From: Fidelibacterota bacterium | GTDB taxonomy: Bacteria; Fidelibacterota; Marinisomatia; SCGC-AAA003-L08; D37C17 | DNA: 40,177 nucleotides | Assembly: GCA_002704685.1 (NCBI GenBank) | Contig: PAHD01000013.1 | Span: 39,988 to 80,164 of the forward strand | Direction of reading: 5' to 3' | Shown here: piece after piece, positions 3,021-37,700 of the stretch | Numbering within the stretch: the first letter of the stretch is position 1 | Layout: every line of letters begins with the position of its first letter | Translations under genes and position numbers: made by a program | The notes under the pieces: model-generated | The model's database searches: none | The model's input: only the letters and a program-made list of their open reading frames with translations | Told to the model about the DNA's origin: nothing

Positions 3021-3464
3021 AATTTCTATAATTTTATTATTATTTTTATCGTGTACTGTATCACCAAGATATGGTGTTCAATCAAATGACTCTACAAAAA
3101 AAACTAAGAAAAATATTAAATATTCAAAAAAAATAAAAAAAGTAGTGAATTAATAGGGGTATCATCTTGGTATGGTCCAAATTTTCATGGTAAACTAACA
3201 GCTAATGGGGAAGTATATGATATGTATGGAGTAACTGCTGCTCATAAAACTTTAACTTTAGGTACCGTAGTTAGAGTTACAAATCTTGATAATGGGAAAT
3301 CATTAATTTTAAGAATAAATGATAGGGGCCCATATGTTGATGGACGTATATTGGATTGTTCATTTGGTGCTGCAAAAAAATTAGGTTTTCATGAGCAAGG
3401 AACAGCTAATGTTGAAATTAAAATAATTGAGGAAGGAGATGGTGTTTATATGCACCATAACTAG
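3010..3464 (+). pseudogene. rlpA: RlpA-family (DPBB domain) lipoprotein, reading frame broken in a poly-A tract
   Basis: Frame 1 (ATG 3010 to TAA 3151-3153) encodes the signal peptide and lipobox MIAKISIILLLFLSC plus a K-rich linker. Frame 0 (open from 3120) encodes the complete DPBB core GVSSWYGPNFHGKLTANGEVYDMYGVTAAHKTLTLGTVVRVTNLDNGKSLILRINDRGPYVDGRILDCSFGAAKKLG. The two frames overlap at 3120-3153 across A8 (3126-3133) and A7 (3135-3141) runs. The ORF-track entry 3222..3464 starts at an internal Met. Confidence 0.7.
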
Positions 3465-3467
3465 TGT

Positions 3468-4283
3468 ATGGTAGATAATAAAAAACCTAGAACTTTAGTT
3501 AACTTAATTGGTGCACCTTTGCTTTTAAGTATTATTTATTTAGGAGGACCATTATTTACACTGTTTATTTTTGTTGTAATCTTTATAAGCACTTATGAAT
3601 TTGATAATATGATTAAAATTAAATCATTCTCTTTAAATCTATATTTTTTCTTTTTCATTTATTTGATTTCTTTAATTAATCATCTATTTCAGATATTTTC
3701 TTATGAACAATATATTTATTTTATTTTATTTATATTTTTTTCAATTTCAATATCATGTTTAAACATAAAAAATAAATTGAAAAATTTTTATTATAGAATT
3801 TTAGCTTTTATTTGGATTGGCTTTTTATTCCAAGAAGCCATTTATTTAAGAAGTCTACCTGAAATTGGTTTTAAAATTGTCCTTTGTATGTTTCTATCTG
3901 TATGGGTAACTGATTCTTTTGCTTTTATTTTTGGATCTAAGTTTGGTAAATCTAAAATATTACCTTCTATTAGTCCAAAAAAAACATGGGTAGGTTTTTT
4001 AGCAGGATATATTGCTTGTTCATTATTTATTTACTGTTTATTTAGTTATAATTATTTTAATAACTCAGTATTTACATTTAATTTATTTGATATAATAGTT
4101 CTGGGATTTATATCAGGTATTCTTGGTCAGTGTGGTGATTTTTTTGAATCTTATTACAAAAGATTTTTTTCTGTAAAAGATTCAGGCACTCTTTTACAGG
4201 GCCATGGAGGATTCTTGGATAGATTTGATTCATTATTATTTGTTGTTCCATTATTCTCGTTTTATTTAAGAGTTATCTTATGA
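3468..4283 (+). CDS. cdsA: Phosphatidate cytidylyltransferase (CDP-diglyceride synthase)
   Basis: Polytopic membrane protein with the CdsA signature near the C-terminus: SYYKRFFSVKDSGTLLQGHGGFLDRFDSLLF. Confidence 0.9.
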   Translation: MVDNKKPRTLVNLIGAPLLLSIIYLGGPLFTLFIFVVIFISTYEFDNMIKIKSFSLNLYFFFFIYLISLINHLFQIFSYEQYIYFILFIFFSISISCLNIKNKLKNFYYRILAFIWIGFLFQEAIYLRSLPEIGFKIVLCMFLSVWVTDSFAFIFGSKFGKSKILPSISPKKTWVGFLAGYIACSLFIYCLFSYNYFNNSVFTFNLFDIIVLGFISGILGQCGDFFESYYKRFFSVKDSGTLLQGHGGFLDRFDSLLFVVPLFSFYLRVIL

Positions 4284-6064
4284 ATCAAAATTTAAAAAAT
4301 ATAAAAGTTATCTTGGCAACAGACTGTGGTTCTACAACAACCAAAGCTATTTTAATTGAATATATTAATAATGAATATAGATTAACTTTTCGTGGTGAAG
4401 CTCCTACTACTGTTGAAGCTCCTTTTGAAGATGTAACATGTGGTGTGATTAATGCTATTATTGAGCTTGAGGAATTATCTGGGAGAAAAATTTTAGATAA
4501 TGATAAGATTATTTCACCTCAATCAAATAATAGAGGGGTAGACCTATATATATCTACAAGCTCTGCTGGAGGGGGCCTTCAAATGATGGTTGGAGGTGTT
4601 GTTAAAAATATGACTGGAGAAAGCGCACAAAGAGCTGCTTTGGGTGCAGGTTCAATAGTTATGGATATCATAGCATCTAATGATGGTAGAAAATATCATG
4701 AGAGAGTACAAAAAATCAGACAATTACGTCCTGATATGATATTATTATCAGGAGGAGTTGATGGTGGTACCAAGTCTCATGTAGTTGAACTTGCTGAAAT
4801 CATTAAAACAGCGAATCCTAATCCTAGATTAGGTAATAATTTTAAAATTCCGATTATTTATGCCGGCAATAAAGATGCAGTTTCTGATATTGACAAAAGG
4901 TTAGGTGATATAACAGATTTAAAAATTGTTGATAACATAAGACCAACGCTTGATAGAGAAAATTTAAAACCAAGTAGAGATAAAATTCATGATTTATTTA
5001 TGGAACATGTTATGGCTCAGGCTCCAGGTTACAATAAGCTATTAACTTGGACAGATTATCCAATTATACCAACTCCTGGTGCTGTAGGAAAAATAATAAA
5101 AAAAATTGCTTATAATGAAAATATTTCTGTTGTTGGGGTAGATATTGGAGGTGCAACTACCGATGTCTTTTCAGTTTTTGATAAAAAATTTAATAGGACA
5201 GTAAGCGCAAATTATGGTATGAGTTATTCAATTTGTAATGTTCTTGCTGAAACGGGTATTGAAAATATATCAAGGTGGCTTTCTTCAGATCTAGAAGAAA
5301 AAGATTTAACCAATAGAATTGCTAATAAAATGATTAGACCTACTACTATTCCTCAAACTCTTGAAGAATTAATAATTGAACAATCAATTGCAAGAGAAGC
5401 TCTAAGATTATCTTTCGTTCAGCATAAAGAATTTGCAGTCTCATTAAAAGGTATTCAACAAGAAAGAACAATTTCAGATACTTTTGATCAAACAATGTCA
5501 GGTGAAACATTGGTTAATATGAATAAGTTGGATATGATTGTTGGTTCAGGAGGAGTTTTATCACATGCTCCAAGAAGAGAGCAAGCATATAGAATGTTAG
5601 TTGACGCTTTTTTACCTGAGGGTATAACTCAAATAGCTGTTGATTCAATTTTTATGATGCCTCAATTAGGTGTTTTATCTGAGATTCATGAGAAAGCAGC
5701 AGTTGAAGTTTTTAATAAAGATTGTTTAGTTAGATTGGGAACATGTATTTCTCCAACTCAAGTAGATGCTGATAATAAAGAAGTTATGGAATATTGCTTT
5801 GAATATGATAATAAAAAAATTGAAGGCATCCTTGAATTTGGTGAGATAAAAATGATTAAAATTGGTTTTGAATCAATTAAAACAAAATTAATTATGAAAA
5901 ATAATTCTAAAATTAATGGATTAGATGAATTTTCTGGTAATGTTTATGGAGGAGAAGTTGGTATTATGCTTGATGGAAGAGGTAGGCCTCTTGATTTTGA
6001 TTTATTTGGAAAAACATTTATTAATAATTGGTCAAAACAAACAAACGAGTACCCACTAAAATAA
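4280..6064 (+). CDS. MutL/EutA-like ASKHA-fold ATPase ('glutamate mutase L' family), function unknown here
   Basis: Two actin-like phosphate motifs, ILATDCGSTTTKAILIE and VVGVDIGGATTDVFSV, plus MIVGSGGVLSHAP. Length is 594 aa. The ATG overlaps the cdsA stop (ATGA at 4280-4283). Confidence 0.75.
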   Translation: MNQNLKNIKVILATDCGSTTTKAILIEYINNEYRLTFRGEAPTTVEAPFEDVTCGVINAIIELEELSGRKILDNDKIISPQSNNRGVDLYISTSSAGGGLQMMVGGVVKNMTGESAQRAALGAGSIVMDIIASNDGRKYHERVQKIRQLRPDMILLSGGVDGGTKSHVVELAEIIKTANPNPRLGNNFKIPIIYAGNKDAVSDIDKRLGDITDLKIVDNIRPTLDRENLKPSRDKIHDLFMEHVMAQAPGYNKLLTWTDYPIIPTPGAVGKIIKKIAYNENISVVGVDIGGATTDVFSVFDKKFNRTVSANYGMSYSICNVLAETGIENISRWLSSDLEEKDLTNRIANKMIRPTTIPQTLEELIIEQSIAREALRLSFVQHKEFAVSLKGIQQERTISDTFDQTMSGETLVNMNKLDMIVGSGGVLSHAPRREQAYRMLVDAFLPEGITQIAVDSIFMMPQLGVLSEIHEKAAVEVFNKDCLVRLGTCISPTQVDADNKEVMEYCFEYDNKKIEGILEFGEIKMIKIGFESIKTKLIMKNNSKINGLDEFSGNVYGGEVGIMLDGRGRPLDFDLFGKTFINNWSKQTNEYPLK

Positions 6065-7176
6065 TGTCAAAGTCGTATACACCAGGATTAAAAATATTAG
6101 AAAATACTTTAATAAAAAAGAAACGTATTTTACCTCTTTCAGGAAAATTGCATGTTAAGAAAGATGATTTAGTTAAATCTGATCAGATAGTTGCTTCAGC
6201 AAATATTCCTGGTAACGTACAAATGTTAAATGTTTCCAATAAATTAAATATAGATCCAAATCAAATATTAGACTGTATGTTGTGTAAAGTAGATGAAGAA
6301 GTAAAAAAAGGTCAAATTATAGCTAAAACTAATGGGATATTTGGTTTTTTTAAATCAGAGTTAGAATCTCCAATGGATGGAGTTCTTATAAATATTTCGG
6401 ATGTAACTGGGCAGATTATAATATCTGAAAAACCTATTCCAATTGAAGTAGATGCTTATATTGATGGAAGAATTGTCGAAACTTATGAAAAAGAAGGTGT
6501 CTTAGTGTCGTCAAAGGGAGTACTTGTCCAAGGAATTATGGGAATTGGAGGAGAAAAAAAAGGTACTCTAAGTGTCTTAGATAAAACAGCAGATTTAGAT
6601 GGAATTGATATAAATAATGATGTTATTGCTGTAATTAATTCGCACTTAGACTTTGAAACATATAAAAAAATGAGCGATTTAGGATTAAAAGGTATAATAT
6701 GTGGTGGAATTGATTATGAATCTTTAACGAAAATTTTAGGTTATCCTCTGGGTGTAGCAATTACAGGTTCTGAAAATGTAACTACAGTTGTAGTAACAGA
6801 GGGTTTTGGAGATATAAATATGTCAGATCGAACATATAACCTATTTAAAAAATATGAAAATTCTTATTGTTCTATTAATGGTGCTACTCAAATAAGAGCT
6901 GGAGTTATGAGGCCAGAGGTTATTATTAGTACTATTGAATCAGAGCTAGATTCTAAAGATAATAATAATGATAATGAATCTTTAATAATGGTTGGCTCAA
7001 AAGTTAGAATTATTCGTGAACCATTTTTTGGTTTAACAGGCTCTGTGTCAAATCTTCCAAAAGACTTAGTCGAAATGAAAACAGAGACATTGGTTAGAGT
7101 GGCTGAGATTACCCTTGATGATGGAACTGAAAAAATTATCCCAAGAGCTAATTTAGAAGTTATTTTATCAGATTAA
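6064..7176 (+). CDS. Soluble protein of unknown function with barrel-sandwich-hybrid (lipoyl/RnfC-N-like) looking segments
   Basis: ATG 6064 overlaps the upstream TAA (TAATG), so it is preferred over the track's TTG at 6028. Segments VKKDDLVKSDQIVASANIPGNVQMLNV and VDEEVKKGQIIAKTNG...ELESPMDGVLINIS resemble hybrid-barrel motifs. No lipoyl or biotinyl Lys motif (MKM) is present. Confidence 0.65.
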   Translation: MSKSYTPGLKILENTLIKKKRILPLSGKLHVKKDDLVKSDQIVASANIPGNVQMLNVSNKLNIDPNQILDCMLCKVDEEVKKGQIIAKTNGIFGFFKSELESPMDGVLINISDVTGQIIISEKPIPIEVDAYIDGRIVETYEKEGVLVSSKGVLVQGIMGIGGEKKGTLSVLDKTADLDGIDINNDVIAVINSHLDFETYKKMSDLGLKGIICGGIDYESLTKILGYPLGVAITGSENVTTVVVTEGFGDINMSDRTYNLFKKYENSYCSINGATQIRAGVMRPEVIISTIESELDSKDNNNDNESLIMVGSKVRIIREPFFGLTGSVSNLPKDLVEMKTETLVRVAEITLDDGTEKIIPRANLEVILSD

Positions 7177-7193
7177 TTGTATTAATTTATGGT

Positions 7194-7457
7194 ATGAGTG
7201 ATGCAAAAAAAATTATATCTGATTTAGCTAAAGATATAGTCCAAAGAGGTTTGTCAGTTCCAGCGATATTCTTTTTAGAAAGTTCAAAGTATGTTTCTTT
7301 TATTGGAAGTCAGTTTCTAGTATTTTTAGGCCCAATAGCTACATGTTTTATTAATAATAAAAAATTTTACAATTTTACATCTATTTTAGAAAAAAAATCT
7401 AATATTGAATTTTTGATTAGTGAAATTGAAAGAATAAATTTAATCACTAAATCATGA
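7194..7457 (+). CDS. Small (87 aa) membrane-associated protein, unknown function
   Basis: Hydrophobic hairpin-like stretch LSVPAIFFLESSKYVSFIGSQFLVFLGPIATCFI. The stop overlaps the next start (ATGA at 7454-7457). Confidence 0.55.
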   Translation: MSDAKKIISDLAKDIVQRGLSVPAIFFLESSKYVSFIGSQFLVFLGPIATCFINNKKFYNFTSILEKKSNIEFLISEIERINLITKS

Positions 7458-8320
7458 ATTATTATACTAAATATATTTTTTTACCTTTTCTAATCTTAAT
7501 CTTTTACTTTTTTATTCCATTTCCAATTTTTTTATCTGGCAATGAAACAACTTTTGTATGCGTGATTCTTTTATGTTTTGTTGTTGAATATTTTATAGAA
7601 AAAGCTAAAAAAGGTGATGATATATACATGCGACCAATTGCTGCAATTAAAGCTATGGAAGAAGCAGTTGGAAGAGCTACTGAAATGGGGAAACCAGTTC
7701 TTTATGTACCTGGTATTTCAAGTCTTGATCAAATTGATACAATCTCTGGATTAACTATACTTGGGCATGTTGCTGGAATGACAGCTGAATATGATGCACA
7801 TTTACATGTTCCAGTTTGTGTCCCGATTGTTATGGAAACTGCAAAAGAAGCATGTAAAGAATCTTATTTAAAAAAAGGAAGACCAGATTTATATAGAGAA
7901 GATATGGTTCATTATGTTACAGATGATCAGTTTGCATATGCTGCAGGTGTAAATGGTATTATGTTAAGAGATAAGCCAGCAGCTGTTTTTTTCCAAGGTA
8001 AGTTTTATGCTGAATCATTAATTTTGGCTGAGACCGGCAATTCTATTGGGGCAATTCAAATTGCAGGTACAGGTTCTTCATCGCAAATTCCATTTTTTGT
8101 TACTGCATGTGATTACACATTAATTGGAGAAGAGTTTTATGCAGCAAGTGCATATCTATCTGGTAGTCCAGAAATGCTTGGTAGTATAAAAGGTCAAGAT
8201 TATGTAAAAGTTGGGTGTATGATTTTTATTTTATTTGTATTTATATGTTCTGTTTTAAATGGTTATAGCATAATTAATTTTGATGTATCTTCATTATTTA
8301 GGATTAATATTTTAAGATGA
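7454..8320 (+). CDS. Membrane-anchored protein with a conserved-looking soluble domain of about 190 aa, unknown function
   Basis: Two N-terminal TM helices and one C-terminal TM helix. The central domain (RPIAAIKAMEEAVGRATEMGKPVLYVPG...HVPVCVPIVMETAKEACK...IQIAGTGSSSQIPFFVTACDYTLIGEE) is much less N/K/I-biased than neighbouring genes. Coupled by ATGA at both ends. Confidence 0.7.
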   Translation: MNYYTKYIFLPFLILIFYFFIPFPIFLSGNETTFVCVILLCFVVEYFIEKAKKGDDIYMRPIAAIKAMEEAVGRATEMGKPVLYVPGISSLDQIDTISGLTILGHVAGMTAEYDAHLHVPVCVPIVMETAKEACKESYLKKGRPDLYREDMVHYVTDDQFAYAAGVNGIMLRDKPAAVFFQGKFYAESLILAETGNSIGAIQIAGTGSSSQIPFFVTACDYTLIGEEFYAASAYLSGSPEMLGSIKGQDYVKVGCMIFILFVFICSVLNGYSIINFDVSSLFRINILR

Positions 8321-9120
8321 AAAGACAAATAGCATATTTCCTTGTAATATTTATTGGTTTCTTAACTTTGTTTGGTCATTTTATAAACTATTCACCTTTA
8401 AATAATTTTATTGATAATGATGCAACTCAATGGTTTGATATTATATCTGGATTTGCAGCATTTTTAGGTGTAATAAATTTGCTACAATTACATTTAAATA
8501 AAATTTCCAGAAAAAAGGATAATTGGAGATATAGTTTTATTACTTTATTTGGTTTTTTAATAATGATTTTTTTCGGATTTATTTATAATGGTTCTGATGT
8601 TTCTATGGGTCCTCATTTGAAAAAAGAAGGATCAGCATTCTATTGGATGTTTCAAAATATTTATTTGCCACTTGGTGCAACAATGTTTGCATTACTTGCT
8701 TTTTTTGTAGCATCTGCTTCATATAGAGCATTCAAAATTAGAAATTTTGAAGCAACATTACTTCTGGTTTCTGGAGTTTTTCTTATGATAGGAAGAGTTC
8801 CTATTGGTCAGTTAATACCATGGTGGATGTCACTTGAAATTTATATTTGTTTATTTTTTGCATTTATAGCAAATAGATTTAATGATAGAAAGAAACTATT
8901 AATTTCTCTACTATTGTCTTTGATTTTATTACCGTTTATTGTTTTTAATTTAGATTTAACTAGTTTAGCAGTTTTTAAGATTACTGAACTGCAAGAATGG
9001 ATAATGGATGTACCAGCTACGGCTGGTTCAAGAGCTATTATGATTGGTATTGCTTTGGGAACTATTGCTCAGTCATATAGAATTATTACCGGAAGAGAAA
9101 AATCAATTCTTGGAGATTAA
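8317..9120 (+). CDS. Polytopic integral membrane protein (about 7-8 TM), unknown function
   Basis: Repeated hydrophobic segments of about 20 aa throughout. ATGA overlap lies upstream, and the stop TAA (9118-9120) is followed directly by the next start (TTG 9121). Confidence 0.7.
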   Translation: MKRQIAYFLVIFIGFLTLFGHFINYSPLNNFIDNDATQWFDIISGFAAFLGVINLLQLHLNKISRKKDNWRYSFITLFGFLIMIFFGFIYNGSDVSMGPHLKKEGSAFYWMFQNIYLPLGATMFALLAFFVASASYRAFKIRNFEATLLLVSGVFLMIGRVPIGQLIPWWMSLEIYICLFFAFIANRFNDRKKLLISLLLSLILLPFIVFNLDLTSLAVFKITELQEWIMDVPATAGSRAIMIGIALGTIAQSYRIITGREKSILGD

Positions 9121-9999
9121 TTGGATTTAATAAAAAATATATTAATTAAATTAGGACAAATTGATAGAAGATTTATTTTTCTTTTAATTGGATTATCAGT
9201 TCTAGTACCTCTTTTAAAACCAGGATGGGTAAATATTCCTATTAAAATAACTTCTAATTCTAAAATAGTTTTTGATGAATTAAATAATTTAAAAGCTGGG
9301 GATAAAGTTTTGGTTTCATTTGAGTATGGAGCAAGCACAAAACCTGAAATTCATCCAATGTCAGTAGCTGTTTTACAGCATCTTTTTGCTAATGAGGTCA
9401 AAGTATATACTGTCCCGCTTTGGCCAGAAGGATTAATGATGGCTAAATTTGCTTTAGAAGAAGTTTTATCTTCAAATTTATTCCAGGTGGAAGAGCATAT
9501 TGATTATGTGAGTTTACCATACAAAGCAGGTGGTGAAATAATTATAAGAGGTATCGCTACAGATATGAGATCAATTTTTACTCAAGATGTTAATAACATA
9601 TTATTAAAAGATATACCAATGATGAATAATGTTAATAATATTACAGATTTTGATTTTGTTTTTGATTTGTCAGCTGGTGTTCCTGGTAATGCTGAATGGG
9701 TTCAGTTTGCATGTGACGAATACAATATACCTTTGTCTTCCGGATGTACCTCCATAATGGTAACAGATGCTATACCTTATGTTGAATCAGGGCAGATAAG
9801 AGGAATTTTAGCAGGAATGCCTGGAGCTGCAGAGTATGAACAGATGGTTTTTAAATATTTAAATGAGAGTAAAAATATTCCAGTTAATCCTGGAAAAGCA
9901 ACATCAAGAATGTCTGCTCAATCAATTGCTCATTTATTAATGGTAATTTTTATACTATTTGGAAATATATCATATTACTTAATAAGGAGAAAAAAATAA
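9121..9999 (+). CDS. Membrane-anchored protein (N- and C-terminal TM, soluble core of about 230 aa), unknown function
   Basis: TTG start directly follows the previous stop, and there is no in-frame ATG before the first TM (FIFLLIGLSVLVPLL). The core contains LVSFEYGASTKPEIHPM and FDLSAGVPGNAEWVQFACDEY. The C-terminal TM is IAHLLMVIFILFGNISYYLI. The layout matches the 7454..8320 product. Confidence 0.65.
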   Translation: MDLIKNILIKLGQIDRRFIFLLIGLSVLVPLLKPGWVNIPIKITSNSKIVFDELNNLKAGDKVLVSFEYGASTKPEIHPMSVAVLQHLFANEVKVYTVPLWPEGLMMAKFALEEVLSSNLFQVEEHIDYVSLPYKAGGEIIIRGIATDMRSIFTQDVNNILLKDIPMMNNVNNITDFDFVFDLSAGVPGNAEWVQFACDEYNIPLSSGCTSIMVTDAIPYVESGQIRGILAGMPGAAEYEQMVFKYLNESKNIPVNPGKATSRMSAQSIAHLLMVIFILFGNISYYLIRRKK

Positions 10000-10721
10000 T
10001 GTTAGAATTATTTGGTGTATGGTGTATAGTATTATTAACTCTTAGTATTTTTAGTTATCTGTATGGTGATAATCCTTTTTATAAAGCAGCTGAACATATT
10101 TTTGTTGGAGTATCAGCTGGTTATATTTTTACAATTACGTTTTGGGATACAATATGGCCGAATTTATTCGGAAGATTAATACCATCATATGTGCAAGCAG
10201 GTTTTGAATTTGATATATCTTATCTTTTCCCTCTATTTTTAGGTATCTTTATGTTATTTAGATTATCAAAAAAATATGATTGGCTATCACGAATATCAAT
10301 TGCATATATTGTAGGTATGATGGCTGGTTTGAAATTTTATGTATTTTTAAATTCAAATTTACTTAATCAAATAAAATCATCCACGGTTAATATATCTGGA
10401 TCATATTTTAGTATAATTAATGAAGTAATTATTTTAATAGGAGTAATAAGTGGATTGGTTTATTTCTTTTTTTCAAAAGAGCATACAGGAATTATTGGTA
10501 AAGTTAGTAGAGTTGGAGTTTATTTTTTGATGATTAAATTTGGTGCTTCATTTGGTTTTGCAGTCATGGGTAGAATTTCATTATTGATTGGTAGGTTTGA
10601 AGAACTTATAGATTATAGTAATGTCGAATATTTTTATGCTACACCAATTATTTTAATTTTCATGATAATAGTTTTAACTTATTGGTCATTTACAAATAAA
10701 GATTTAAAAGAAAATAATTAA
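9999..10721 (+). CDS. Polytopic integral membrane protein (about 6 TM), unknown function
   Basis: TAATG overlap with the previous gene. Hydrophobic helices run throughout the 240 aa. Confidence 0.7.
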   Translation: MLELFGVWCIVLLTLSIFSYLYGDNPFYKAAEHIFVGVSAGYIFTITFWDTIWPNLFGRLIPSYVQAGFEFDISYLFPLFLGIFMLFRLSKKYDWLSRISIAYIVGMMAGLKFYVFLNSNLLNQIKSSTVNISGSYFSIINEVIILIGVISGLVYFFFSKEHTGIIGKVSRVGVYFLMIKFGASFGFAVMGRISLLIGRFEELIDYSNVEYFYATPIILIFMIIVLTYWSFTNKDLKENN

Positions 10722-12266: not shown

Positions 12267-12818
12267 ATGAAAAAATATTTTTTACTAGTTTTATTATTAT
12301 CTTTGTGTTTTACACAAAGAGGGGAAAGATGGAAGAATAGATTTAAAAATGATTTTAACAAAGGCAATAGAAATAAGCTAGAATTACAACAAATTAGTGA
12401 TGAGGCAAAAATGCTATTTTACCAAATAGAAAAAATAAGCCCAGAAAAAGCAGCTTTGTATCAGTTTGCTTTACCTGTACCTTTTGTAAATCTTGGATTC
12501 GCATATTCAGATAGCTGGAACAAGGGTTTAAAATGGGATATTTTACTTCTTGCATGTTTAGTAAAAGGGAATGATATTGATTGGGGAGAGAAAACAGCTG
12601 GCAGTCCAGTAAATCCAGATAAAGATTTGGGGCAAAATCTGAAAAGCGTTGTAGTGGGGATTGCTTTTTTAAAGATGTTTGATGCATATCAGTCAGCTGA
12701 GAAATATAACAATCAACTTTTTAAACGAGTTTTTAAAAGGAAAAGGCCAAACTTTTCAATGAATCATTCAAAAAAAGATAATCTTACCCAATTAACAATG
12801 TCTTATCCGTTAAATTAA
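12267..12818 (+). CDS. Secreted or lipoprotein-like protein, unknown function
   Basis: N-terminal signal peptide MKKYFLLVLLLSLCFTQ with a lipobox-like LSLC. SD aaggag lies upstream. No family was recognised. Confidence 0.55.
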   Translation: MKKYFLLVLLLSLCFTQRGERWKNRFKNDFNKGNRNKLELQQISDEAKMLFYQIEKISPEKAALYQFALPVPFVNLGFAYSDSWNKGLKWDILLLACLVKGNDIDWGEKTAGSPVNPDKDLGQNLKSVVVGIAFLKMFDAYQSAEKYNNQLFKRVFKRKRPNFSMNHSKKDNLTQLTMSYPLN

Positions 12819-17260: not shown

Positions 17261-17334
<74 letters not shown>

Positions 17335-17360
17335 CATAATTGAAAATTAAGGAGTAAAAA

Positions 17361-22133: not shown

Positions 22134-23012
22134 ATGAGTTCTAATCTTTTATTAGGTAAACCAGTTGCTGAAAAGCATTATTCTGTTATGAAAAAAAGAA
22201 TTTTAGAATTAAAAAATAAAGGTATAGTTCCAAAGTTGGTAGTTATCTTAATTGGAAATAATCCTGCTTCAAGAATTTATGTCAATTCAAAAGCTAAGAT
22301 GTTTAAAAATCTAAACTGTTTATCAGAAATCAAAAAGTTAAATAAAGATGTTTCAAAAAATAATCTTTTAAAATTAATTTAGGATTTGAATAATGATAAA
22401 AATATTCATGGGATACTATTACAATTACCCCTACCTAAGCATTTAGATTCAAATGATTTTCTATCAAAAATAAATCCTATGAAAGATGTGGATGGATTTC
22501 ATCCAGAAAATTCAGGTCTTTTATTTCAAGGAAAACCTAGGTTCATCCCTTGTACTCCTTTGGGTTGTGTTAAAATTTTAGAGTATTATAAAATTAATAT
22601 AAAGTCTAAATATATTGTGGTCATTGGAAGAAGTAATATTGTAGGAAAGCCAATAACCTCTCTTCTTTCACAACCATTTGAGATAGGAAATGCAACTGTT
22701 ACTTTGTGTCATTCACATACTACTAATTTATCTGATTATACAAAATTAGCAGACATTATTATTGCTGCAGTAGGAAAGCCTAATTTGATTAAAAAAGATA
22801 TGGTAAAAGATGGATGTATTATTTTAGATATTGGAATAAATAGAATAAATGATCATTCAGATAAAGGATATCATATTGTTGGCGATGTTGATTTTTCAAG
22901 TCTTGTAGAAAAAGCAAGCTATATTACTCCTGTACCTGGTGGAGTTGGACCGATGACAATCTCAATGCTAATGCATAATACAATTCTAGCTGCAGAACTA
23001 TCTATTAAATAA
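22134..23012 (+). pseudogene. folD: Bifunctional methylenetetrahydrofolate dehydrogenase/cyclohydrolase FolD, interrupted by one in-frame TAG (22380-22382)
   Basis: ORFs 22134..22382 and 22386..23012 are in the same frame. Read through, they give ...NNLLKLI*DLNNDKNIHGILLQLPLPKHLD...PCTPLGC...VIGRSNIVGKP...PVPGGVGPMT, a full-length FolD with the stop at a single residue position. Confidence 0.85.
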
Positions 23013-24528
23013 AGTAATTTATACTAACCGTTGGGTTTGTTTCAGGAAATATATATTCATTTTTTGAAGTATTGTGTATGCCTGCATTTTTAAAACAATT
23101 CATATAACAATCATATTCAATTAAATATTGGTCAGTATATCCATGGGTAGTATCATAGGAGCATGAAAGAGTTTTTCCAGAGTTTATTCGAGTTATTTCA
23201 GGGTCAAGAGTATGTAGTTCTATTATTATAAGACCATATTTTTTTATATAAGGTTTCCATTTATGTAAATGTTCAATAAAATTAGCTATTAAATTTCTTG
23301 AATTAATTAACTTACCTTTGAAAGCAAAGCTTCCTTTTGATATAATATCATGTTTGAGAAATTCTTTTGAAGGTTTTTTATAAATTCGGTTATGATCTAA
23401 GAATGTTCTACAATTTAAAAGATTTTTTAGTTTTAAATCGTATTTTTTAATTAAGTCATTATTTAATTTTTTAGGGTTTGAAATATCTCCACTCAGAATA
23501 TAATGATTAATTTTTTTTAAAGTTGATTTTGTTGCAATTCTAGCTTTTTTATTAATATCTGTTCCAACGATTATTAAAGGTTTCTTATTTAAATTTTCTC
23601 CTCTTATGGTATTATTCGTTATAATTTTATATAGATGTTTAAGAAATGTTCCATCACCACAGCCTATATCAATAATACCATCAGGTTGTTCATATAGAGG
23701 TTTATTAAAAATATCTAAAATAATGTTGTCTATTTTTTTAAAATAATTTTTATGAGCTCCTCCACTTCCCCATACATTTAGAGGCCTGTCAACATGAATT
23801 TCAGTATTATCTTCCGTTCTTTGCCAAATAAAGTCAGGTTTACTAGTTAAAAGTTTATTGATATTATTTAATGTATTTAAGTAAGATACTGTAACCCCGT
23901 ATGCTGATGCTTTTGAAATAAAGTATAATCCCTTTTTAGTTAATTTATTATTATTAATTAAACCAAAATAAATGAATAATTTAAAAATTGCTTTTTTAAA
24001 ATTTTTATCAATATCATTTAATATGATTTTACTGTTATGAATTTTTAATTTTCTATTAAAAGATAGTTTTGACAAGATTGGTCCTAGTAAAAATCCTTCA
24101 AAATAATCTGCTAGAAAACTATTTTTTTTATAATTACTACTAATTAAATCATTTATATAATTTAAATAATTTTTAATATCTCTGTTTTTTAAATTGTTTA
24201 TTTTTAAATAAAAAGAAATTAGGAAGTCAATGTTTTTTATTAAATCAATATTTCTTGTTAGTTTGTATAATTTTTTATTTGAATTGAATTTATAATCATT
24301 TATATCATTTTTTTCAATGAGATTGATTAGATTGCAATTCATTAAGGTCCTCAAGCTAACATTTAAATATCCCAAATTAATATTGTTATTTTTATTTAGG
24401 TCATTTATTGTAAAAGATTCTTTTTTATTAATTAATTGAATTATATTTACTTTTTTAAGAGCTAATATTGTAGGCATTAAGACAATACCATCAAGATGTT
24501 TAAATAAAGTTTCTCTAAAATTTTTCAT
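23005..24528 (-). CDS. Class I SAM-dependent methyltransferase-like protein with a long N-terminal domain, substrate unknown
   Basis: Motif I GIIDIGCGDGTFLKHL is followed by IVGTDIN (motif II-like). An N-terminal domain of about 280 aa begins LFKHLDGIVLMPTILAL, which looks like a winged-helix or dimerisation domain. The conserved-looking block HVDRPLNVWGSGGAHKNYF is also present. This is the only minus-strand gene in the first 37 kb. Confidence 0.7.
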   Translation of the reverse strand: MKNFRETLFKHLDGIVLMPTILALKKVNIIQLINKKESFTINDLNKNNNINLGYLNVSLRTLMNCNLINLIEKNDINDYKFNSNKKLYKLTRNIDLIKNIDFLISFYLKINNLKNRDIKNYLNYINDLISSNYKKNSFLADYFEGFLLGPILSKLSFNRKLKIHNSKIILNDIDKNFKKAIFKLFIYFGLINNNKLTKKGLYFISKASAYGVTVSYLNTLNNINKLLTSKPDFIWQRTEDNTEIHVDRPLNVWGSGGAHKNYFKKIDNIILDIFNKPLYEQPDGIIDIGCGDGTFLKHLYKIITNNTIRGENLNKKPLIIVGTDINKKARIATKSTLKKINHYILSGDISNPKKLNNDLIKKYDLKLKNLLNCRTFLDHNRIYKKPSKEFLKHDIISKGSFAFKGKLINSRNLIANFIEHLHKWKPYIKKYGLIIIELHTLDPEITRINSGKTLSCSYDTTHGYTDQYLIEYDCYMNCFKNAGIHNTSKNEYIFPETNPTVSINYFI

Positions 24529-32117: not shown

Positions 32118-32798
32118 ATGAACTTAACACAAGAAGAAAAGAACAAATTAATTAGTGCAAAAGATGAATCTCAATGGTTTAAAATCATTGATGAAATAAA
32201 ACTTGTAAGAAATGGCTTGTATCCTAATAATCTAGCGAGGGAAGTACTTGCTATTTACGACAACAAGTTTCCAGTTAATAATTATCCAGAATTTAAAGAA
32301 GCTAAACAGTCAAAAATGAATAGAAAATCATTTTTGTCAACATTGAGTGTTGCTTGGTTAGCATTTGCTGCAGCAACTGGTGGTTTTTTAACTGTTTTAG
32401 TTAGATTCTTATTTCCTAATGTTTTATTTGAACCACCTCAATCCTTCAAAATTGGATTTCCTGAGGATTTTGAACCTGGTAAAGTAGACTTAAGATTCAA
32501 AAAAGAATATAATGTTTGGATAGTAAGAGATGATGAAAAAATTACAGCCTTATCAACTGTCTGTACTCATTTGGGTTGTACCCCTAATTGGCAGGAAACT
32601 GATCGTAAGTTCAAATGTCCTTGTCATGGTAGTGGCTTTAGGTCAACTGGTATCAATTTTGAAGGTCCAGCTCCAAGACCATTAGAAAGATTCAAGATTG
32701 GTTTAGCTAACGATGGTCAAATTATTGTTGATAAAACAAAATTATTTAAATATGAAAAAGGCGAATGGAATAGATCTGAGTCTTTTTTAAAGGTTTAA
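32118..32798 (+). CDS. Rieske [2Fe-2S] subunit of a cytochrome bc-type complex
   Basis: Cluster-binding boxes CTHLGCTPNW and CPCHGSGF. A TM anchor (LSVAWLAFAAATGGFLTVLV) is preceded by NRKSFL. There is an unusual N-terminal extension of about 66 aa; the alternative start is ATG 32316. Confidence 0.9.
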   Translation: MNLTQEEKNKLISAKDESQWFKIIDEIKLVRNGLYPNNLAREVLAIYDNKFPVNNYPEFKEAKQSKMNRKSFLSTLSVAWLAFAAATGGFLTVLVRFLFPNVLFEPPQSFKIGFPEDFEPGKVDLRFKKEYNVWIVRDDEKITALSTVCTHLGCTPNWQETDRKFKCPCHGSGFRSTGINFEGPAPRPLERFKIGLANDGQIIVDKTKLFKYEKGEWNRSESFLKV

Positions 32799-32810
32799 CG
32801 GAGATTAATT

Positions 32811-33599
32811 ATGTCAGATAAGAAAAAATCAATATTAGATTATTTAAATGAGTCAATGGTTTGGAAGTCGATTTTTAGATCTGGTGTTCCAAGAACTAGA
32901 AGGCAAAGAATGTATGCAGTTTTAGGTAATGTTTTTTTACATCTTCATCCAGCAAGGCTTCCAAAGCATGCTGTTAAGGTTGGCTATACTTGGTGTATGG
33001 GAGGATTGTCTTTTTTCTTATTTGTTGTACTGACAATCACTGGCATTTTACTGATGTTTTATTACAGGCCAACTGTTGAGTATGCATTTACTGACATTAT
33101 AGATTTAGGAGAACAAGTACCTCTTGGAATTATGAGAGAAATTCATAGATGGGGTGCCCATTCAATGGTTTTAACAACATGGTTACATATGCTAAGAGTA
33201 TTTATGACAGGTTCATATAAACCTCCAAGAGAGTTTAATTGGGCTGTAGGTGTTATTTTAATGACACTAACTTTATTATTGAGTTTCACTGGATATCTTC
33301 TTCCTTGGGATCAGTTAGCTATATGGGCTGTGACTGTTGGTTCAAACATGGCAAGAGCAACACCATTTTTGGGACATGAGGGTCCAGGTGCTTCACTTCT
33401 TGCTATTGGAGATGTGAATTTAGTCCATTCAGGGTCAGATGTTAGATTTGCTCTTTTAGGTGGTAGATTTGTTGGTGAAGCAACATTATTAAGATTTTAT
33501 GTTCTACATTGTATCGCTGTTCCATTTGTTGCTATGATATTTATGGCAGTTCATTTTTGGAGAATTAGAAAAGATGGAGGTATATCAGGTCCTTTATAA
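32811..33599 (+). CDS. Cytochrome b, N-terminal (b6-like, haem-binding) subunit
   Basis: 262 aa with 4 TM. Conserved His-bearing helices (FLHLHPARL..., REIHRWGAHSMVLTTWLHMLRVF, and HC/HFWRIRKDGGISGP at the end), as in split cytochrome b6. Confidence 0.9.
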   Translation: MSDKKKSILDYLNESMVWKSIFRSGVPRTRRQRMYAVLGNVFLHLHPARLPKHAVKVGYTWCMGGLSFFLFVVLTITGILLMFYYRPTVEYAFTDIIDLGEQVPLGIMREIHRWGAHSMVLTTWLHMLRVFMTGSYKPPREFNWAVGVILMTLTLLLSFTGYLLPWDQLAIWAVTVGSNMARATPFLGHEGPGASLLAIGDVNLVHSGSDVRFALLGGRFVGEATLLRFYVLHCIAVPFVAMIFMAVHFWRIRKDGGISGPL

Positions 33600-34717
33600 T
33601 GATTGAGAATATTAAAAATACTATTGATTATCTTTCTACTCCGACCATCTCTTTTACAATATTGACTGTAATATTTCCTTTTTTATTTCCTCCAACTGAT
33701 TGGTTTGATAAAGTAAGTAGAAAGTTTGGAATCTGGAGAATATGGACTAACCCAGGTGGAGTAGTAATATTTGTAGTTACAACTGCCTTTTTTTATTTAG
33801 GATTCAAGGATGAAAATTTTAGTATTATTTTAAATAAGCCTGATAATTTTCCAATTATTATGATGATTTATACCATGTTTTTCTATACTTGGTATGGTAT
33901 GAAAAAATCTTATATAAATGATCGACGTTTAGAAAGAGGAAAAAAACCCAATGAGTACAATGACCCTGAAGATAAAGTATTAGTATGGCCAGACCTTGTT
34001 TATATCGAATTTATTGCATTATTACTTTTTTCAGTTTTTTTAATTGTTTGGTCTATACTTGTCGCTGCTCCTTTAGAAGAACCAGCTAATCCATCTGTTA
34101 CTCCTAATCCTTCAAAAGCACCTTGGTATTTCTTAGGTTTACAAGAAATGTTAGTATATTTTGATCCATGGTTAGCTGGAGTTTTATTTCCTACATTTAT
34201 TATTTTAGGTATGTGTGCAATACCGTATATGGATATAAATAAAAAAGGTGATGGATATTATTCTTTTAAAGAAAGAAGAGTTGGTTATTTTATTTTTATG
34301 TACGGTTGGTTAGCTTTATGGACATATTTGATTGTTATTGGTACTTTCTTTAGAGGACCCAACTGGAATTTTTATGGTCCGTTTGAATGGTGGGACCCTC
34401 ACAAACTTGAAGTTTTGAATAATGTTAATTTATCTGAATATTTTTGGGTCATACTTTTAAATCAACCATTACCCTCAAATGTTTTACTTAGAGAGTCAAT
34501 TGGTTTTATTGTAACAGGACTTTATTTGTTTGTTTTACCTATATTCCTTGCAAAGACTTATCTTAAAAATATGCTTAAAGAGTATGGTCCTGTTAGGTAT
34601 GTTTTTTTAATGTTGATGGGACTGTCAATGCTTGCGCTTCCAATTAAGATGTATTTAAGATGGTTTTTTAATTTGAAATACATTGTAGCAATTCCTGAAT
34701 ACTTTTTCAATATCTAA
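33599..34717 (+). CDS. Cytochrome b C-terminal (subunit IV-like) subunit with extra TM helices
   Basis: PNPSKAPWYFLGLQEMLVYF is the PEWY-type Qo-site motif region of cytochrome b C-terminal domains. At 372 aa it is much longer than the roughly 160-aa subunit IV of b6f. TAATG overlap with the b6-like gene. Confidence 0.85.
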   Translation: MIENIKNTIDYLSTPTISFTILTVIFPFLFPPTDWFDKVSRKFGIWRIWTNPGGVVIFVVTTAFFYLGFKDENFSIILNKPDNFPIIMMIYTMFFYTWYGMKKSYINDRRLERGKKPNEYNDPEDKVLVWPDLVYIEFIALLLFSVFLIVWSILVAAPLEEPANPSVTPNPSKAPWYFLGLQEMLVYFDPWLAGVLFPTFIILGMCAIPYMDINKKGDGYYSFKERRVGYFIFMYGWLALWTYLIVIGTFFRGPNWNFYGPFEWWDPHKLEVLNNVNLSEYFWVILLNQPLPSNVLLRESIGFIVTGLYLFVLPIFLAKTYLKNMLKEYGPVRYVFLMLMGLSMLALPIKMYLRWFFNLKYIVAIPEYFFNI

Positions 34718-34719
34718 TT

Positions 34720-37700
34720 ATGGATTATAAAAACGACGAAAGATATTGGAATATAAACTTACTAAATAAATGGTTTGCCATTGCTAGTATTCTTACACTT
34801 ATTTCAGTTGGATGGATGTTCTTACATGATAATGATGATGAATTCAAAGAATATCAAAGAGAATTTAGAAAGTTAGGAGCAGAGGTTGCAGAAACTAAAT
34901 TACTTGAAGAATTGAGTTTAGTCGAAGATGAAAGAGATATATATCAAGAAGCTTATGATGAAGAAAAAAATAAATTTGATGCAAACGGAGATAAATTAGA
35001 TTCTCTTAATAATCTACTTGTAGATGTAAAAGGAATTTTTTATAAATCTAATATGGATTATTTATTTTTTAAAGCAGAGTCTGATCAAAAAAAATATTTA
35101 TATGAAACAGAGCTAGCTCATTCACATGATGAGGACCATCATAATCATGAGGAATATAAATATAAAAATGAATATGAAACATCGCTTGTAACCCTGCAAG
35201 AATTAAAGTTAATTAAAGAAAAAGATGAAAAATTAGTTCTTGAAACTGAGGAAGAAATTAAAAATTTAAGTTCTAATTTAAAAGTTAAGGAAGATGAATT
35301 AAATAAATATTTAAAACAGGTTAGTTTACTTGAAATGAAAATTCAAAAATTAGATCGTTCAAAGATGTCTTTTGTAAATCAAATTGGAGATATTGTAAGA
35401 GATTTACCAATAATTGATTTTTTGGATCCTTATTATAAAGTTCACCAAATAGTAGCTCATGATGTTAAATATGATGTTAATTTTGCCTCCGTTCCAAGTG
35501 TTGATAGATGCACAAGTTGTCACTTAGGTATTGATAATCCAGATTTTGTTGATGCTCCTCAACCTTATACAACTCATCCAAGGCTTGACTTATACGTTTC
35601 TTCATCTTCGCCTCATACTATGGACCAATTTGGGTGTACAAGTTGTCATGCAGGAAGAGCAAGAGGAACATCTTTTATTTCATCATCTCATACTCCAGGA
35701 TCAAAAGAACAAGAAGATGAGTGGAAAGAAAAGTATGATTGGGAAAAAATACATCACTGGTTACAACCGATGTTACCTACTAAATATACCCAGGCAAGTT
35801 GTTTTAATTGTCATCAGAGTCAGCCTATAGTTGATGGTGGTGATAAATTAGCTTTAGGTTTGGGGTTAATAAGTACTTCTGGGTGCAATAATTGTCACCA
35901 TATTGAAACTTATCAGAAAGAATATAATGCAGGGCCCCCTCTTACTCATTTAGATCAAAAATTAGATAAAGAATGGGTTGCTAAATGGATTAAAAATCCT
36001 CAAAGTTTTAGGTACAATACATGGATGCCTCATTTTTTTGAGCAAGAAAATAATTCTAGTCCAGAAATGGTCAGAAGAAATAATTCTGAAATTTATGCTA
36101 TGACAGAGTATTTTTTCCCAGATGGCGGTCATGTCATGAATAATTCATCAGAGTTCATAGGAAATTATGAATCTGGTGAGAAATTATTTAACGCTGTTGG
36201 TTGCATGGGATGTCATCAGGTTAAAGATGAAAAAGTAGATATGACATTCGATGATTTACCATACGAAATGTTTATGTCAAAGTTTGGATACGAATCAGAA
36301 GAGATGACTCGATATGAGTTACTTAAAAACCAAGGTCCAAATTTGATTGGAGTTGGATCAAAATCTGATGCAGAATGGATATATAATTGGATTAAAAATC
36401 CTTCTGAATATTACCCTGAAACTAGAATGCCTGATATGAGATTAACTCATGAAGAAGCTGCTGATATTACTGCTTATTTATTAACTTTGAAAAATGAAGA
36501 GTTTGCAAAATTACCTAGTTCTTACTATGACCAAGAAGAAATGAATAATATAGCTAAAGGATGGATGGTTAAAGCTTTTGCTGAAGAAGAGGCTATTGAA
36601 AAACTAAACAGGATGTCTGAAAAAGAAGTCATTAATTATGTTGGTACAAAAAGTATTAACTATTATGGATGTTATACATGCCACAGTATTAAAGGTTTTG
36701 AAAATGGTAAGCCCATTGGTGCAGAGTTAACATATGAGGGTTCGAAGCCTCTAAATACATTAGATTTTGGCCATATACATTTTATTGGTCATAATAACTA
36801 TTCTTGGTTTGAACAGAAATTAGCAAATCCAAGAATTTTTGATCGAGATAAAATAGTTGCTCCTGAAGATAAATCTAGAATGCCTAATTATTACTTTAAA
36901 CCAGAAGAAATTGAAGCAATTACAACTGCAATATTAGGTTTTAATAATAATAAGTTTTCAGATAATATGCTTATTGAAAATCTTGTAGATGATAAAAATG
37001 TTTTTAAAGGTTACTCTTTAATTCAGCAGTATAATTGTCAAGGTTGTCATATGATTGATGATTTTGGTGGTCAAATTGTTGATTTGCTTGGTCAAGATTA
37101 TGGTCCACCTAATCTAAATACTCAAGGTATCAAAACTCAACCAGATTGGTTATATAAATTTTTCAAAAATCCAATTACAATAAGACCAAGTTTACAAGTA
37201 AGAATGCCATCGTTTACTATGCTTTCAGATGATGATTGGAATTCTTTAATAGGTTCTTTGCAACATTTAGAAAATCATAAGCTGGCATTTGAAAGCGATT
37301 TAATTGTAGATAAACATAGTATAGAATTTAAAGCAGGTGAAAAGCTTCATGAATTTGGTGCATGTAATAATTGTCATTTTTATGGTGAGATTAAGCCTGT
37401 TCAAGGTCCAGCATCTTGGGCTCCTAATTTAGCAATGACTAAAGAAAGGTTAAGACCTGAGTGGGTTATTGAATGGTTGAGAAATCCGCAGGCAATTATG
37501 CCTGGTACAAAAATGCCAGCAGTTTATTTACCAACTTCTGATATCTTAGAAGCTGATGGTGCAGAACAAGTCTGGGGTTCTGAGTTAGTTGAGCTTAAAG
37601 GAAATAATGATTTAATGCTTAAAGGAATTACTGATTACATCTATACTATACCTGGAAAAACAGATATAACCAAAATAGTTAAAGAATATTTCAAAACAAA

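Follow-up and report, generated by a model that had tools for sequence, protein, structure and literature searches.

A conserved seven-gene cluster joining a MutL-family actin-fold ATPase to a DUF6754 protein and other membrane proteins: a candidate modular inner-membrane machine

Closest described systems and the seven-gene locus

The closest described relatives of the system considered here are GlmL/MutL, an accessory protein of the coenzyme-B12-dependent glutamate (methylaspartate) mutase, and the related Or-4 protein of ornithine degradation, with which one of its products shares the Pfam family MutL (PF13941) and intact ASKHA (actin-fold) phosphate motifs. Looser likenesses are found to the DdrAB/GdrAB and EutA reactivases, the Rnf and Na+-NQR complexes, the energy-coupling factor (ECF) and ATP-binding cassette (ABC) transporters, and the PilM-PilN-PilO, GspL-GspM and MreB-MreC-MreD assemblies. 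The system is encoded by seven tightly packed genes (g1 to g7) on the + strand, at positions 4280-10721 in the open reading frame (ORF) listing of a 40,177-nt stretch of Marinimicrobia (Fidelibacterota) DNA, hereafter the window. The products are an ASKHA ATPase (g1), a soluble protein (g2), a small membrane protein (g3), a DUF6754 protein (g4) and three further membrane proteins (g5, g6 and g7). The favoured reading, given about an even chance, is that g1-g7 form one conserved modular ATP-dependent inner-membrane machine composed of two modules. A multi-subunit membrane machine driven by ATP had been proposed in an earlier, sequence-only reading of the window; it stands as the central inference and is strengthened by the present analysis. 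The assembly, energy coupling and function set out in the model are deduced from sequence, synteny and two predicted structures.

In DdrAB/GdrAB and EutA, an ASKHA-fold ATPase remodels, under nucleotide control, a partner subunit with a Rossmann-like fold. The likeness to these reactivases lies in the Rossmann/flavodoxin-like domain of g4 and in the AlphaFold2 (AF2) model of g2, which weakly matches the large subunit of glycerol dehydratase reactivase (GdrA, 1nbw_A; E value 0.045, TM-score 0.21). This structural match is not significant, however; neither sequence nor profile comparison relates the proteins to the reactivases, the locus has no dehydratase or lyase client, and the seven-gene system is membrane-embedded. 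The Rnf and Na+-NQR complexes resemble the cluster in subunit layout: a peripheral subunit with an N-terminal barrel-sandwich domain is combined with two bitopic subunits, one with its domain in the cytoplasm and the other with its domain in the periplasm, and with at least two polytopic subunits. By contrast, g2 scores 20.9 bits against RnfC_N (E value 4e-4), under the gathering score of 25.6, and 17 against TIGR01945 (rnfC), for which the cut-off is 246; NqrA and RnfC are not in the top Foldseek matches. No RnfA/D/E/G, NqrB/NqrC, FMN-binding or Fe-S match is detected in g4-g7 of the window, nor among the diverse g5, g6 and g7 orthologues scanned (24-25 per protein), and g1 supplies an ATPase where Rnf and Nqr have redox modules.

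Similarly to ECF and ABC transporters, the cluster pairs one conserved cytoplasmic ATPase module with several paralogous membrane modules (one to three per locus), and the energiser is better conserved than the membrane parts. The differences are that the matches above threshold include neither a P-loop nucleotide-binding domain nor any ABC, ECF or permease family, that g1 has the actin fold, and that transport by the cluster is unproven. The PilM-PilN-PilO, GspL-GspM and MreB-MreC-MreD systems resemble it in joining an actin-fold cytoplasmic protein to bitopic or polytopic inner-membrane partners, and an invariant short peptide at the N-terminus of g2 may dock onto a partner. However, PilM, FtsA, MreB, MreC and MreD are absent from the Pfam and NCBIfam matches, g1 belongs to the hydantoinase/MutL branch, and no pilus, secretin or peptidoglycan-synthesis family is among the widely shared neighbour families.

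Broader searches agree with the earlier view that the cluster is not assignable to any characterised system, a view that holds after Pfam, NCBIfam, PADLOC, PDB profile and Foldseek comparisons. Five of the seven proteins (g2, g3, g5, g6 and g7) have no Pfam family match above threshold, none of the seven exceeds an NCBIfam cut-off or matches the anti-phage defence models of PADLOC, and PDB sequence and profile searches with g1, g2, g4, g5, g6 and g7 return nothing significant. The AF2 models of g2 and g4, compared with the PDB by Foldseek, match no characterised complex, and no cofactor, redox, P-loop or permease family is detected in the seven proteins. The literature searched contains no mention of DUF6754, PF20539 or PF13941 and no description of the cluster. 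It had been expected that g1 would match MutL and the remaining proteins domains of unknown function (DUFs); this proved right for g1 and for g4, while the other five fall in no Pfam family at all. No characterised counterpart of the system is found, though its parts use known folds.

Conserved synteny and modular organization

Gene order was compared in a synteny set of 160 loci, drawn from 80 genome loci, to which the window proteins were compared by tblastn, and from a reciprocal scan of metagenome contigs starting at g1; gene-order strings were built for 78 loci. Beside g4, the genome loci encode g5 (77 of 80), g6 (74 of 80) and g7 (70 of 80) in more than 10 phyla, with the gaps mostly at contig ends. 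Within 10 kb of g4, g1 and g2 are found in 48 of the 80 loci and g3 in 43. The reciprocal scan places g2 directly downstream of g1 in 57 of the 61 metagenome loci with enough sequence, and the g4-g5-g6-g7 module within 10 kb of g1 in 14 of 20 well-flanked loci; therefore, the two parts can be unlinked. By gene order, the cluster resolves into two modules, an engine (g3-g1-g2) and a membrane module (g4-g5-g6-g7). The order is 1234567 in Marinimicrobia, and elsewhere 3124567, 4567312, 312(4567)x3 or an arrangement in which 1-2 is divergent from 4-5-6-7. The sequence-only reading had held that the adjacency would be incidental if the genes were not co-localised in related genomes; the seven are in fact co-localised across phyla. 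ORF clustering of the loci reveals no other family as widespread, the top extra family being an eighth gene, g0 (14 loci), and the other large clusters being antisense shadow ORFs.

Tandem membrane modules stand beside a single engine in 16 of the 78 loci, of which 12 are triple (Zixibacteria and Ignavibacteria) and four double. Copies in the same position are orthologous across the triplicated loci, with first copies 57-70% identical to one another compared to 37-59% between first and second copies; for g6, the example values are 57% and 37%. Because positional copies are orthologous across genomes and phyla, the triplication is ancient and g4-g7 duplicate and evolve as a unit. One metagenome contig (L158) carries two engine modules, in the order 1-2-3-1-2.

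The distribution of the system is broad and extends over many poorly studied phyla. An exhaustive HMMER search for DUF6754 recovers 2016 representative clusters, defined at 50% identity, with E<=1e-3, of which 746 reach E<=1e-30; in a scan of one genome per GTDB species, g4 is present in at least 596 genomes. The closest relatives of the window g4 are marine metagenome proteins, those with names being from Candidatus Marinimicrobia (SAR406), to which the window therefore belongs. Carriers among the matches listed in the genome scan include Marinimicrobia/Fidelibacterota, Zixibacteria, WOR-3, Eisenbacteria, Ignavibacteria and Fermentibacteria/Aegiribacteria; the same scan adds Coatesbacteria, Stahlbacteria, Lentisphaeria, Planctomycetota, Rifleibacteria and single metagenome-assembled genomes labelled Bacillota and Deltaproteobacteria, while Latescibacteria and Gemmatimonadetes were found in the protein search. 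Outside Marinimicrobia, identity to the window proteins is ~60% for g1, 57% for g4, 43% for g2 and ~35-45% for g5-g7. The set is retained in a streamlined genome of ~27% GC. Occurrence in at least 596 genomes, g1 identity of ~60% between phyla and retention in SAR406 together point to an important cellular role.

Gene layout and junctions

All seven ORFs lie on the + strand at the positions first read from the DNA, and the junctions also read as claimed: ATGA overlaps at 4280 (cdsA/g1), 7454 (g3/g4) and 8317 (g4/g5), TAATG at 6064 (g1/g2) and 9999 (g6/g7), a TAA followed directly by TTG at 9118-9123 (g5/g6), and a sole spacer of 17 nt (7177-7193). Two starts deserve comment. The ORF list begins g2 at TTG 6028, while its homologues begin MxxAYTPGLK, which corresponds to ATG 6064; for g6, a TTG start accords with the N-terminus conserved among homologues, which includes a near-invariant DRR motif. 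The coupled junctions are real, but to call them the hallmark of stoichiometric co-production overstates the case for a compact genome. The window (GC ~27%) has nearly all genes on the + strand, and at least seven more same-strand gene pairs overlap in it (e.g., at 14174, 14890, 19472, 25675, 26516, 28453 and 33599). Because overlapping and abutting junctions are common throughout this streamlined window, translational coupling alone is weak evidence; the strong evidence for the gene set is conserved synteny. Promoter and terminator consensus scans gave matches at or below chance expectation.

Composition gives a mixed picture. The fractions of N+K+I residues are 0.18 (g4), 0.21 (g5), 0.22 (g7), 0.23 (g6), 0.24 (g1) and 0.27 (g2) within a window range of 0.11-0.38, such that the earlier remark that the soluble domains are less biased toward these residues fits g4 but not g1 and g2, which are near the window norm. 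Each of g1-g7 has orthologues in many phyla and, thus, the seven are real genes.

The engine: g1, g2 and g3

The g1 protein (594 amino acids (aa); 4280-6064, + strand) is an ASKHA ATPase of the MutL/GlmL Pfam family, as first proposed, and represents a distinct subfamily with an extra C-terminal domain of ~110 aa. Its match to PF13941 (E value 2.4e-124, 416 bits; gathering cut-off 27) spans the entire model (1-450 of 450) and g1 residues 11-482. The two phosphate motifs recognised earlier are present and invariant across phyla: the phosphate-1 motif DCGSTTTK (residues 15-22; 4322-4345, + strand) is unchanged in 18 orthologues from several phyla, and the phosphate-2 motif DIGGATTD (residues 288-295; 5141-5164, + strand) falls within a weak match to Hydantoinase_A (residues 276-311). 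A third element, the adenosine-binding glycine motif SGGVLSH (residues 423-429), is invariant in the 18 orthologues and, with the DxGxT (phosphate-1) and DxGGxT (phosphate-2) patterns, completes the ASKHA motif set. Judged from its sequence, the g1 ATPase looks catalytically intact.

While g1 is 57-69% identical to aligned orthologues of other phyla (mean column identity 66%), and g1-type orthologues of the system are 57-74% identical among themselves, g1 is only 26-31% identical to genuine GlmL encoded beside glmS/glmE. Its scores fall under the NCBIfam equivalog cut-offs for GlmL (NF040745, 218.9 versus 475) and Or-4 (NF040744, 224.4 versus 600) and under the subfamily cut-off of TIGR01319 (glmL_fam, 158.8 versus 204). 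The partners also differ, being g2 and the membrane proteins with no glmS/glmE nearby. Consistent with the earlier statement that the cluster contains no B12, radical-SAM or mutase partner, no mutase, B12-binding or radical-SAM family is found in the seven proteins or the other Pfam-scanned ORFs of the window, and none of these is among the gene families common to the 80 genome loci, the metagenome loci having been screened for cluster genes and flanks only. Based on the low identity, the sub-cut-off scores, the extra C-terminal domain and the lack of a mutase partner, g1 is evidently not a bona fide GlmL. In a plasmid collection, g1 matches distant genuine glmL genes only. At one metagenome locus (L148:10001-13765), g1 is followed by two paralogous secreted proteins of 280 aa.

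The g2 protein (370 aa counted from ATG 6064; 6064-7176, + strand) is soluble and has three domains: its N-terminal part is a barrel-sandwich hybrid, its middle domain is alpha/beta, and it ends in a barrel of the KOW/SH3-like type. The AF2 model (predicted local distance difference test score, pLDDT, 81) has an all-beta N-terminal part, an alpha/beta domain at residues ~187-290 and a small C-terminal barrel. Foldseek comparison of this model with the PDB gives domain-level matches only, to the KOW domain of NusG/Spt5, to biotinyl domains of BCCP and to the SH3-like PetP of cytochrome b6f. The barrel-like segments noticed earlier are borne out by the weak RnfC_N match and by the biotinyl-domain-like fold matches. 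The residues Y5-T6-P7-G8-L9 are invariant, though the first seven residues are disordered in the model; because of this pairing, the YTPGL sequence is suggested to be a docking peptide.

Two simpler identities for g2 were considered and rejected. NusG, in which an NGN domain precedes KOW, does not fit because the KOW likeness is confined to the C-terminal barrel, the score against TIGR01956 is 15.6 versus 150 and the whole-protein TM-score is ~0.15. A biotin or lipoyl carrier does not fit either, as the BCCP-like fold presents a hairpin of K-S-F-F-G-L-F in the family consensus that, by eye, is without the MKM-type lysine. Several g2 homologues (P0278, P0281, P0289 and others) are annotated in their sources as "transcription antitermination factor NusG". 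Many of the "MutL/glutamate mutase L" (g1) and "NusG" (g2) labels in these genomes are suggested to mislead.

The g3 protein (87 aa; 7194-7457, + strand) is a small membrane protein with one hydrophobic stretch by hydropathy and no Pfam family. Outside Marinimicrobia, g3 is found either upstream of g1 (g3-g1-g2) or at the head of the membrane module; at three loci (L014, L017 and L019) it stays with the membrane module while g1-g2 are elsewhere. The additional gene g0, next to g3 on its upstream side at 14 non-Marinimicrobia loci and at L081, encodes a protein of ~150 aa with two transmembrane (TM) helices and a bacterial PH-like (bPH_6) domain (e.g., L030:2558-3010, L033:5679-6152, L075:5598-6131 and L081:5575-6039). 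Neither the window nor any Marinimicrobia locus contains g0.

The membrane module: g4, g5, g6 and g7

The g4 protein (288 aa; 7454-8320, + strand) is a member of DUF6754 (PF20539; E value 3e-112, 374 bits, gathering cut-off 27) in which a cytoplasmic Rossmann/flavodoxin-like domain is preceded by two TM helices and followed by one. The alpha/beta domain (residues ~63-236; 7640-8161, + strand) is the most conserved part of the membrane module, with 68 invariant columns in 48 sequences, among them E, D, Q and C residues. In the AF2 model (pLDDT 75.5), helices span residues 5-20, 31-52 and 239-270, the last one being long. Foldseek comparison of this model with the PDB finds no match at E<0.01 or TM>0.3, only generic Rossmann/flavodoxin-fusion matches, and g4 has no match in the plasmid collection.

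Most DUF6754 proteins are longer (400-1100 aa), with the DUF at the C-terminus. These long forms begin with a signal peptide, an FN3-like ectodomain of ~120 aa and a QWF motif, after which the DUF6754 domain is enclosed between two TM helices; some have several FN3 domains or a BamB-like PQQ_2 beta-propeller as the ectodomain. The g4 of Marinimicrobia is a trimmed form in which an N-terminal TM hairpin takes the place of the signal peptide and the FN3-like ectodomain. Based on the long-form layout and on positive-inside counts (2.8 versus 1.4 K+R), the DUF6754 domain is predicted to be cytoplasmic and both g4 termini to be outside. One protein (P0121) that was considered as a natural g4-g5 fusion is instead a close g4 homologue with an extra domain at its C-terminus.

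The remaining proteins of the module have no significant Pfam or PDB match. The g5 (267 aa; 8317-9120, + strand) and g7 (240 aa; 9999-10721, + strand) proteins are polytopic, the former with the signature PL(S/G)ATMFALLAFFVASASYRAF and the latter with invariant D24, N25, E32, R98, H162 and R192. The g6 protein (292 aa, TTG start; 9121-9999, + strand) has a TM helix, a soluble domain of ~225 aa and a second TM helix. An invariant RR, inside the near-invariant DRR motif just before the first TM helix, and a basic tail after the last one place the g6 domain in the periplasm with moderate confidence. Hydropathy agrees with the layout first described, in which g4 and g6 have ~200 aa between TM segments and g5 and g7 have ~6-8 segments each. 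When diverse orthologues of the g5, g6 and g7 proteins (24-25 per protein) were scanned, Pfam gave scattered sub-threshold matches only, those of g5 including TMD0_ABC in 7 of 25 (best E value 2e-4) and one match to ABC2_membrane_5. Paralogy of g4 with g6 and of g5 with g7 was also considered and rejected, as hhalign finds no homology in either pair.

Proposed mechanism and alternative explanations

In the proposed machine, the engine would comprise the g1 ATPase, g2 as a constant soluble partner and g3 as a membrane tether (with g0 where present). The membrane module would contribute the cytoplasmic Rossmann-like domain of g4, usually with an FN3-like or beta-propeller domain outside, the ~225-aa periplasmic domain of g6, and a polytopic membrane core of g5 and g7. 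The g1 and g2 proteins would dock on the cytoplasmic domain of g4, ATP binding and hydrolysis would open and close the g1 cleft, and g2 would pass this motion to the g4 domain. The motion could then travel through the g4 TM helices to g5/g7 and the periplasmic g6 domain, such that the g4-g7 bundle rearranges. The output may be work across the inner membrane, either as substrate translocation or as movement of periplasmic domains, and one engine may serve one to three paralogous membrane modules, much as an energiser is shared in ECF/ABC systems. The FN3 and propeller ectodomains lean toward macromolecular or envelope targets. The conservation gradient, from g1 (~60%) and g4 (57%) to g5-g7 (~35-45%), resembles by analogy the energiser-versus-permease pattern.

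A broader proposition, tentative and rather doubtful as a whole, is that the cluster is the first of a new class of primary membrane machines that are energised by an actin-fold (MutL-type) ATPase rather than a P-loop (ABC, AAA+ or F/V-type) or P-type ATPase, and in which interchangeable g4-g7 modules with variable ectodomains, served by a single g1-g2-g3 engine (with g0 in some phyla), set the target in the envelopes of the FCB (Fibrobacteres-Chlorobi-Bacteroidetes) group, the PVC (Planctomycetes-Verrucomicrobia-Chlamydiae) group and candidate phyla. If the cluster is an ATP-driven machine, the coupling of an actin-fold ATPase to a membrane module would be a new energising principle, and a function would be gained for a large block of "hypothetical" genes in abundant lineages of ocean, sediment and soil (Marinimicrobia, Zixibacteria, Latescibacteria, Ignavibacteria, Planctomycetota and others).

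Several observations weigh against an ATP-driven machine. To our knowledge, no ASKHA ATPase has been demonstrated to energise membrane transport, and nothing in Pfam, the PDB or the g4 Foldseek search relates g4-g7 to a transporter or motor, whether by fold or by sequence. The engine and membrane modules are unlinked in ~30% of well-flanked loci, and g1 is without a detected g2 at four loci (L118, L121, L148 and L157) that each have at least 1.3 kb of downstream sequence. Residues 160-198 of g4 are heavily conserved, with many invariant columns, yet are the lowest-confidence part of the AF2 model, as might be expected if this stretch is a partner-dependent interface. The periplasmic placement of the g6 domain depends on a modest charge bias. 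In addition, the sole described role of the MutL/GlmL family is that of a protein thought to act as an ATP-dependent chaperone that reactivates glutamate mutase (PMC4682846).

This described role is the starting point for an alternative in which the cluster encodes a membrane-anchored enzyme, with g1 (and g2) as a GlmL/DdrA/EutA-like reactivase or assembly chaperone whose client is the g4 domain or a cofactor bound there. The extreme conservation of that domain and its invariant E, D, Q and C residues are as expected of an active site, and the weak match of the g2 model to 1nbw_A also fits. The explanation is nevertheless judged unlikely: g1 is remote from real GlmL and below all equivalog cut-offs, the seven proteins include no B12-binding, radical-SAM or other cofactor family, the g4 fold matches only generic Rossmann folds at TM-scores of <0.3, and the co-duplication, as one unit, of g5, g7, g6 and the variable ectodomains of g4 is left unexplained. 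The actin fold of g1 also permits a nucleotide-dependent scaffold or morphogenetic platform, in which g1 is an actin-like organiser that binds membrane partners, in the manner of MreB-MreC-MreD, FtsA or PilM-PilN-PilO, and positions envelope or surface structures with no pumping. The N-terminal peptide of PilN docks into PilM, and the invariant, disordered YTPGL peptide of g2 is likened to it; there is a loose resemblance of g6 (bitopic) and g5/g7 (polytopic) to MreC and MreD, the ectodomains of g4 (FN3 and BamB-like propeller) are modules for protein or glycan interaction, and the very high conservation across phyla is as in cytoskeletal proteins. By contrast, polymerisation is not known in the MutL/hydantoinase branch, neither sequence nor profile comparison finds a likeness to MreB, FtsA, PilM, MreC or MreD, and three ancient paralogous modules per engine fit multiple specificities better, which leaves such a platform quite improbable.

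Two further explanations concern the surroundings of the cluster. The sequence-only reading had linked it to lysine or aminoadipate uptake or processing through the downstream genes ALDH7 (piperideine-6-carboxylate dehydrogenase), which starts 9 nt after g7, and lat, which is 2.1 kb further on. Both pass NCBIfam equivalog cut-offs (NF050084 and TIGR03251), and several Marinimicrobia contigs show this arrangement too. However, ALDH7 is near the cluster in 12 and lat in 14 of the 80 genome loci, and cdsA in 18, all of the Marinimicrobia lineage; ALDH7 and lat are missing from many Marinimicrobia loci and from every other carrier phylum, and neighbours outside Marinimicrobia differ from the window flanks. 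Unrelated genes are packed tightly in this genome, and cdsA, whose function is unrelated to lysine, is joined to the cluster just as tightly. Because this flank synteny is confined to Marinimicrobia, both the lysine link and a cdsA link are rejected, the former being very improbable. That g1-g7 are themselves unrelated genes, adjacent by accident in a compact genome, would accord with the frequent overlaps across the window and the uninformative promoter and terminator scans, but the same families recur in conserved order in more than 10 phyla and 160 independently fetched loci and the four membrane genes duplicate together, such that the chance of incidental adjacency is negligible.

Flanking genes and other features of the window

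The cdsA gene (3468-4283, + strand) adjoins g1 in nearly all Marinimicrobia contigs and in no other phylum. An ORF of 80 aa that ends 3 nt upstream of cdsA (3222-3464, + strand) looks RlpA/DPBB-like by eye, and an ORF of 183 aa between ALDH7 and lat (12267-12818, + strand) has a signal-peptide-like N-terminus and no Pfam family. An ExbB-ExbD-TonB set is found near the cluster at 10 of the 80 genome loci (L055:16156-18894, L029, L033, L040, L041, L057, L059, L066, L043 and L062). In WOR-3 and Fermentibacteria, the set follows g7 at a distance of ~3 kb, while two Zixibacteria-type loci have it next to g2. This proximity could reflect lineage synteny or hint at a link to envelope energy.

Elsewhere in the window, a respiratory gene set (32118-37767, + strand) begins with a Rieske gene (32118-32798), followed by cytochrome b split over two ORFs (32811-33599 and 33599-34717) and by a gene for a protein of 1015 aa that has several cytochrome c domains (34720-37767); the set looks like a bc-type complex of unusual form, whose multihaem subunit is large and fused. 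A stand-alone protein of 507 aa (23005-24528, - strand) matches AprA_N, WH_AprA and the AprA MT2-like methyltransferase; its gene is one of only three large minus-strand ORFs of the window, and its N+K+I fraction (0.38) is the highest. The cumulative GC skew climbs almost monotonically from position 1 to 40177, and the sole tRNA gene of the window encodes tRNA-Val(GAC) (17261-17335).

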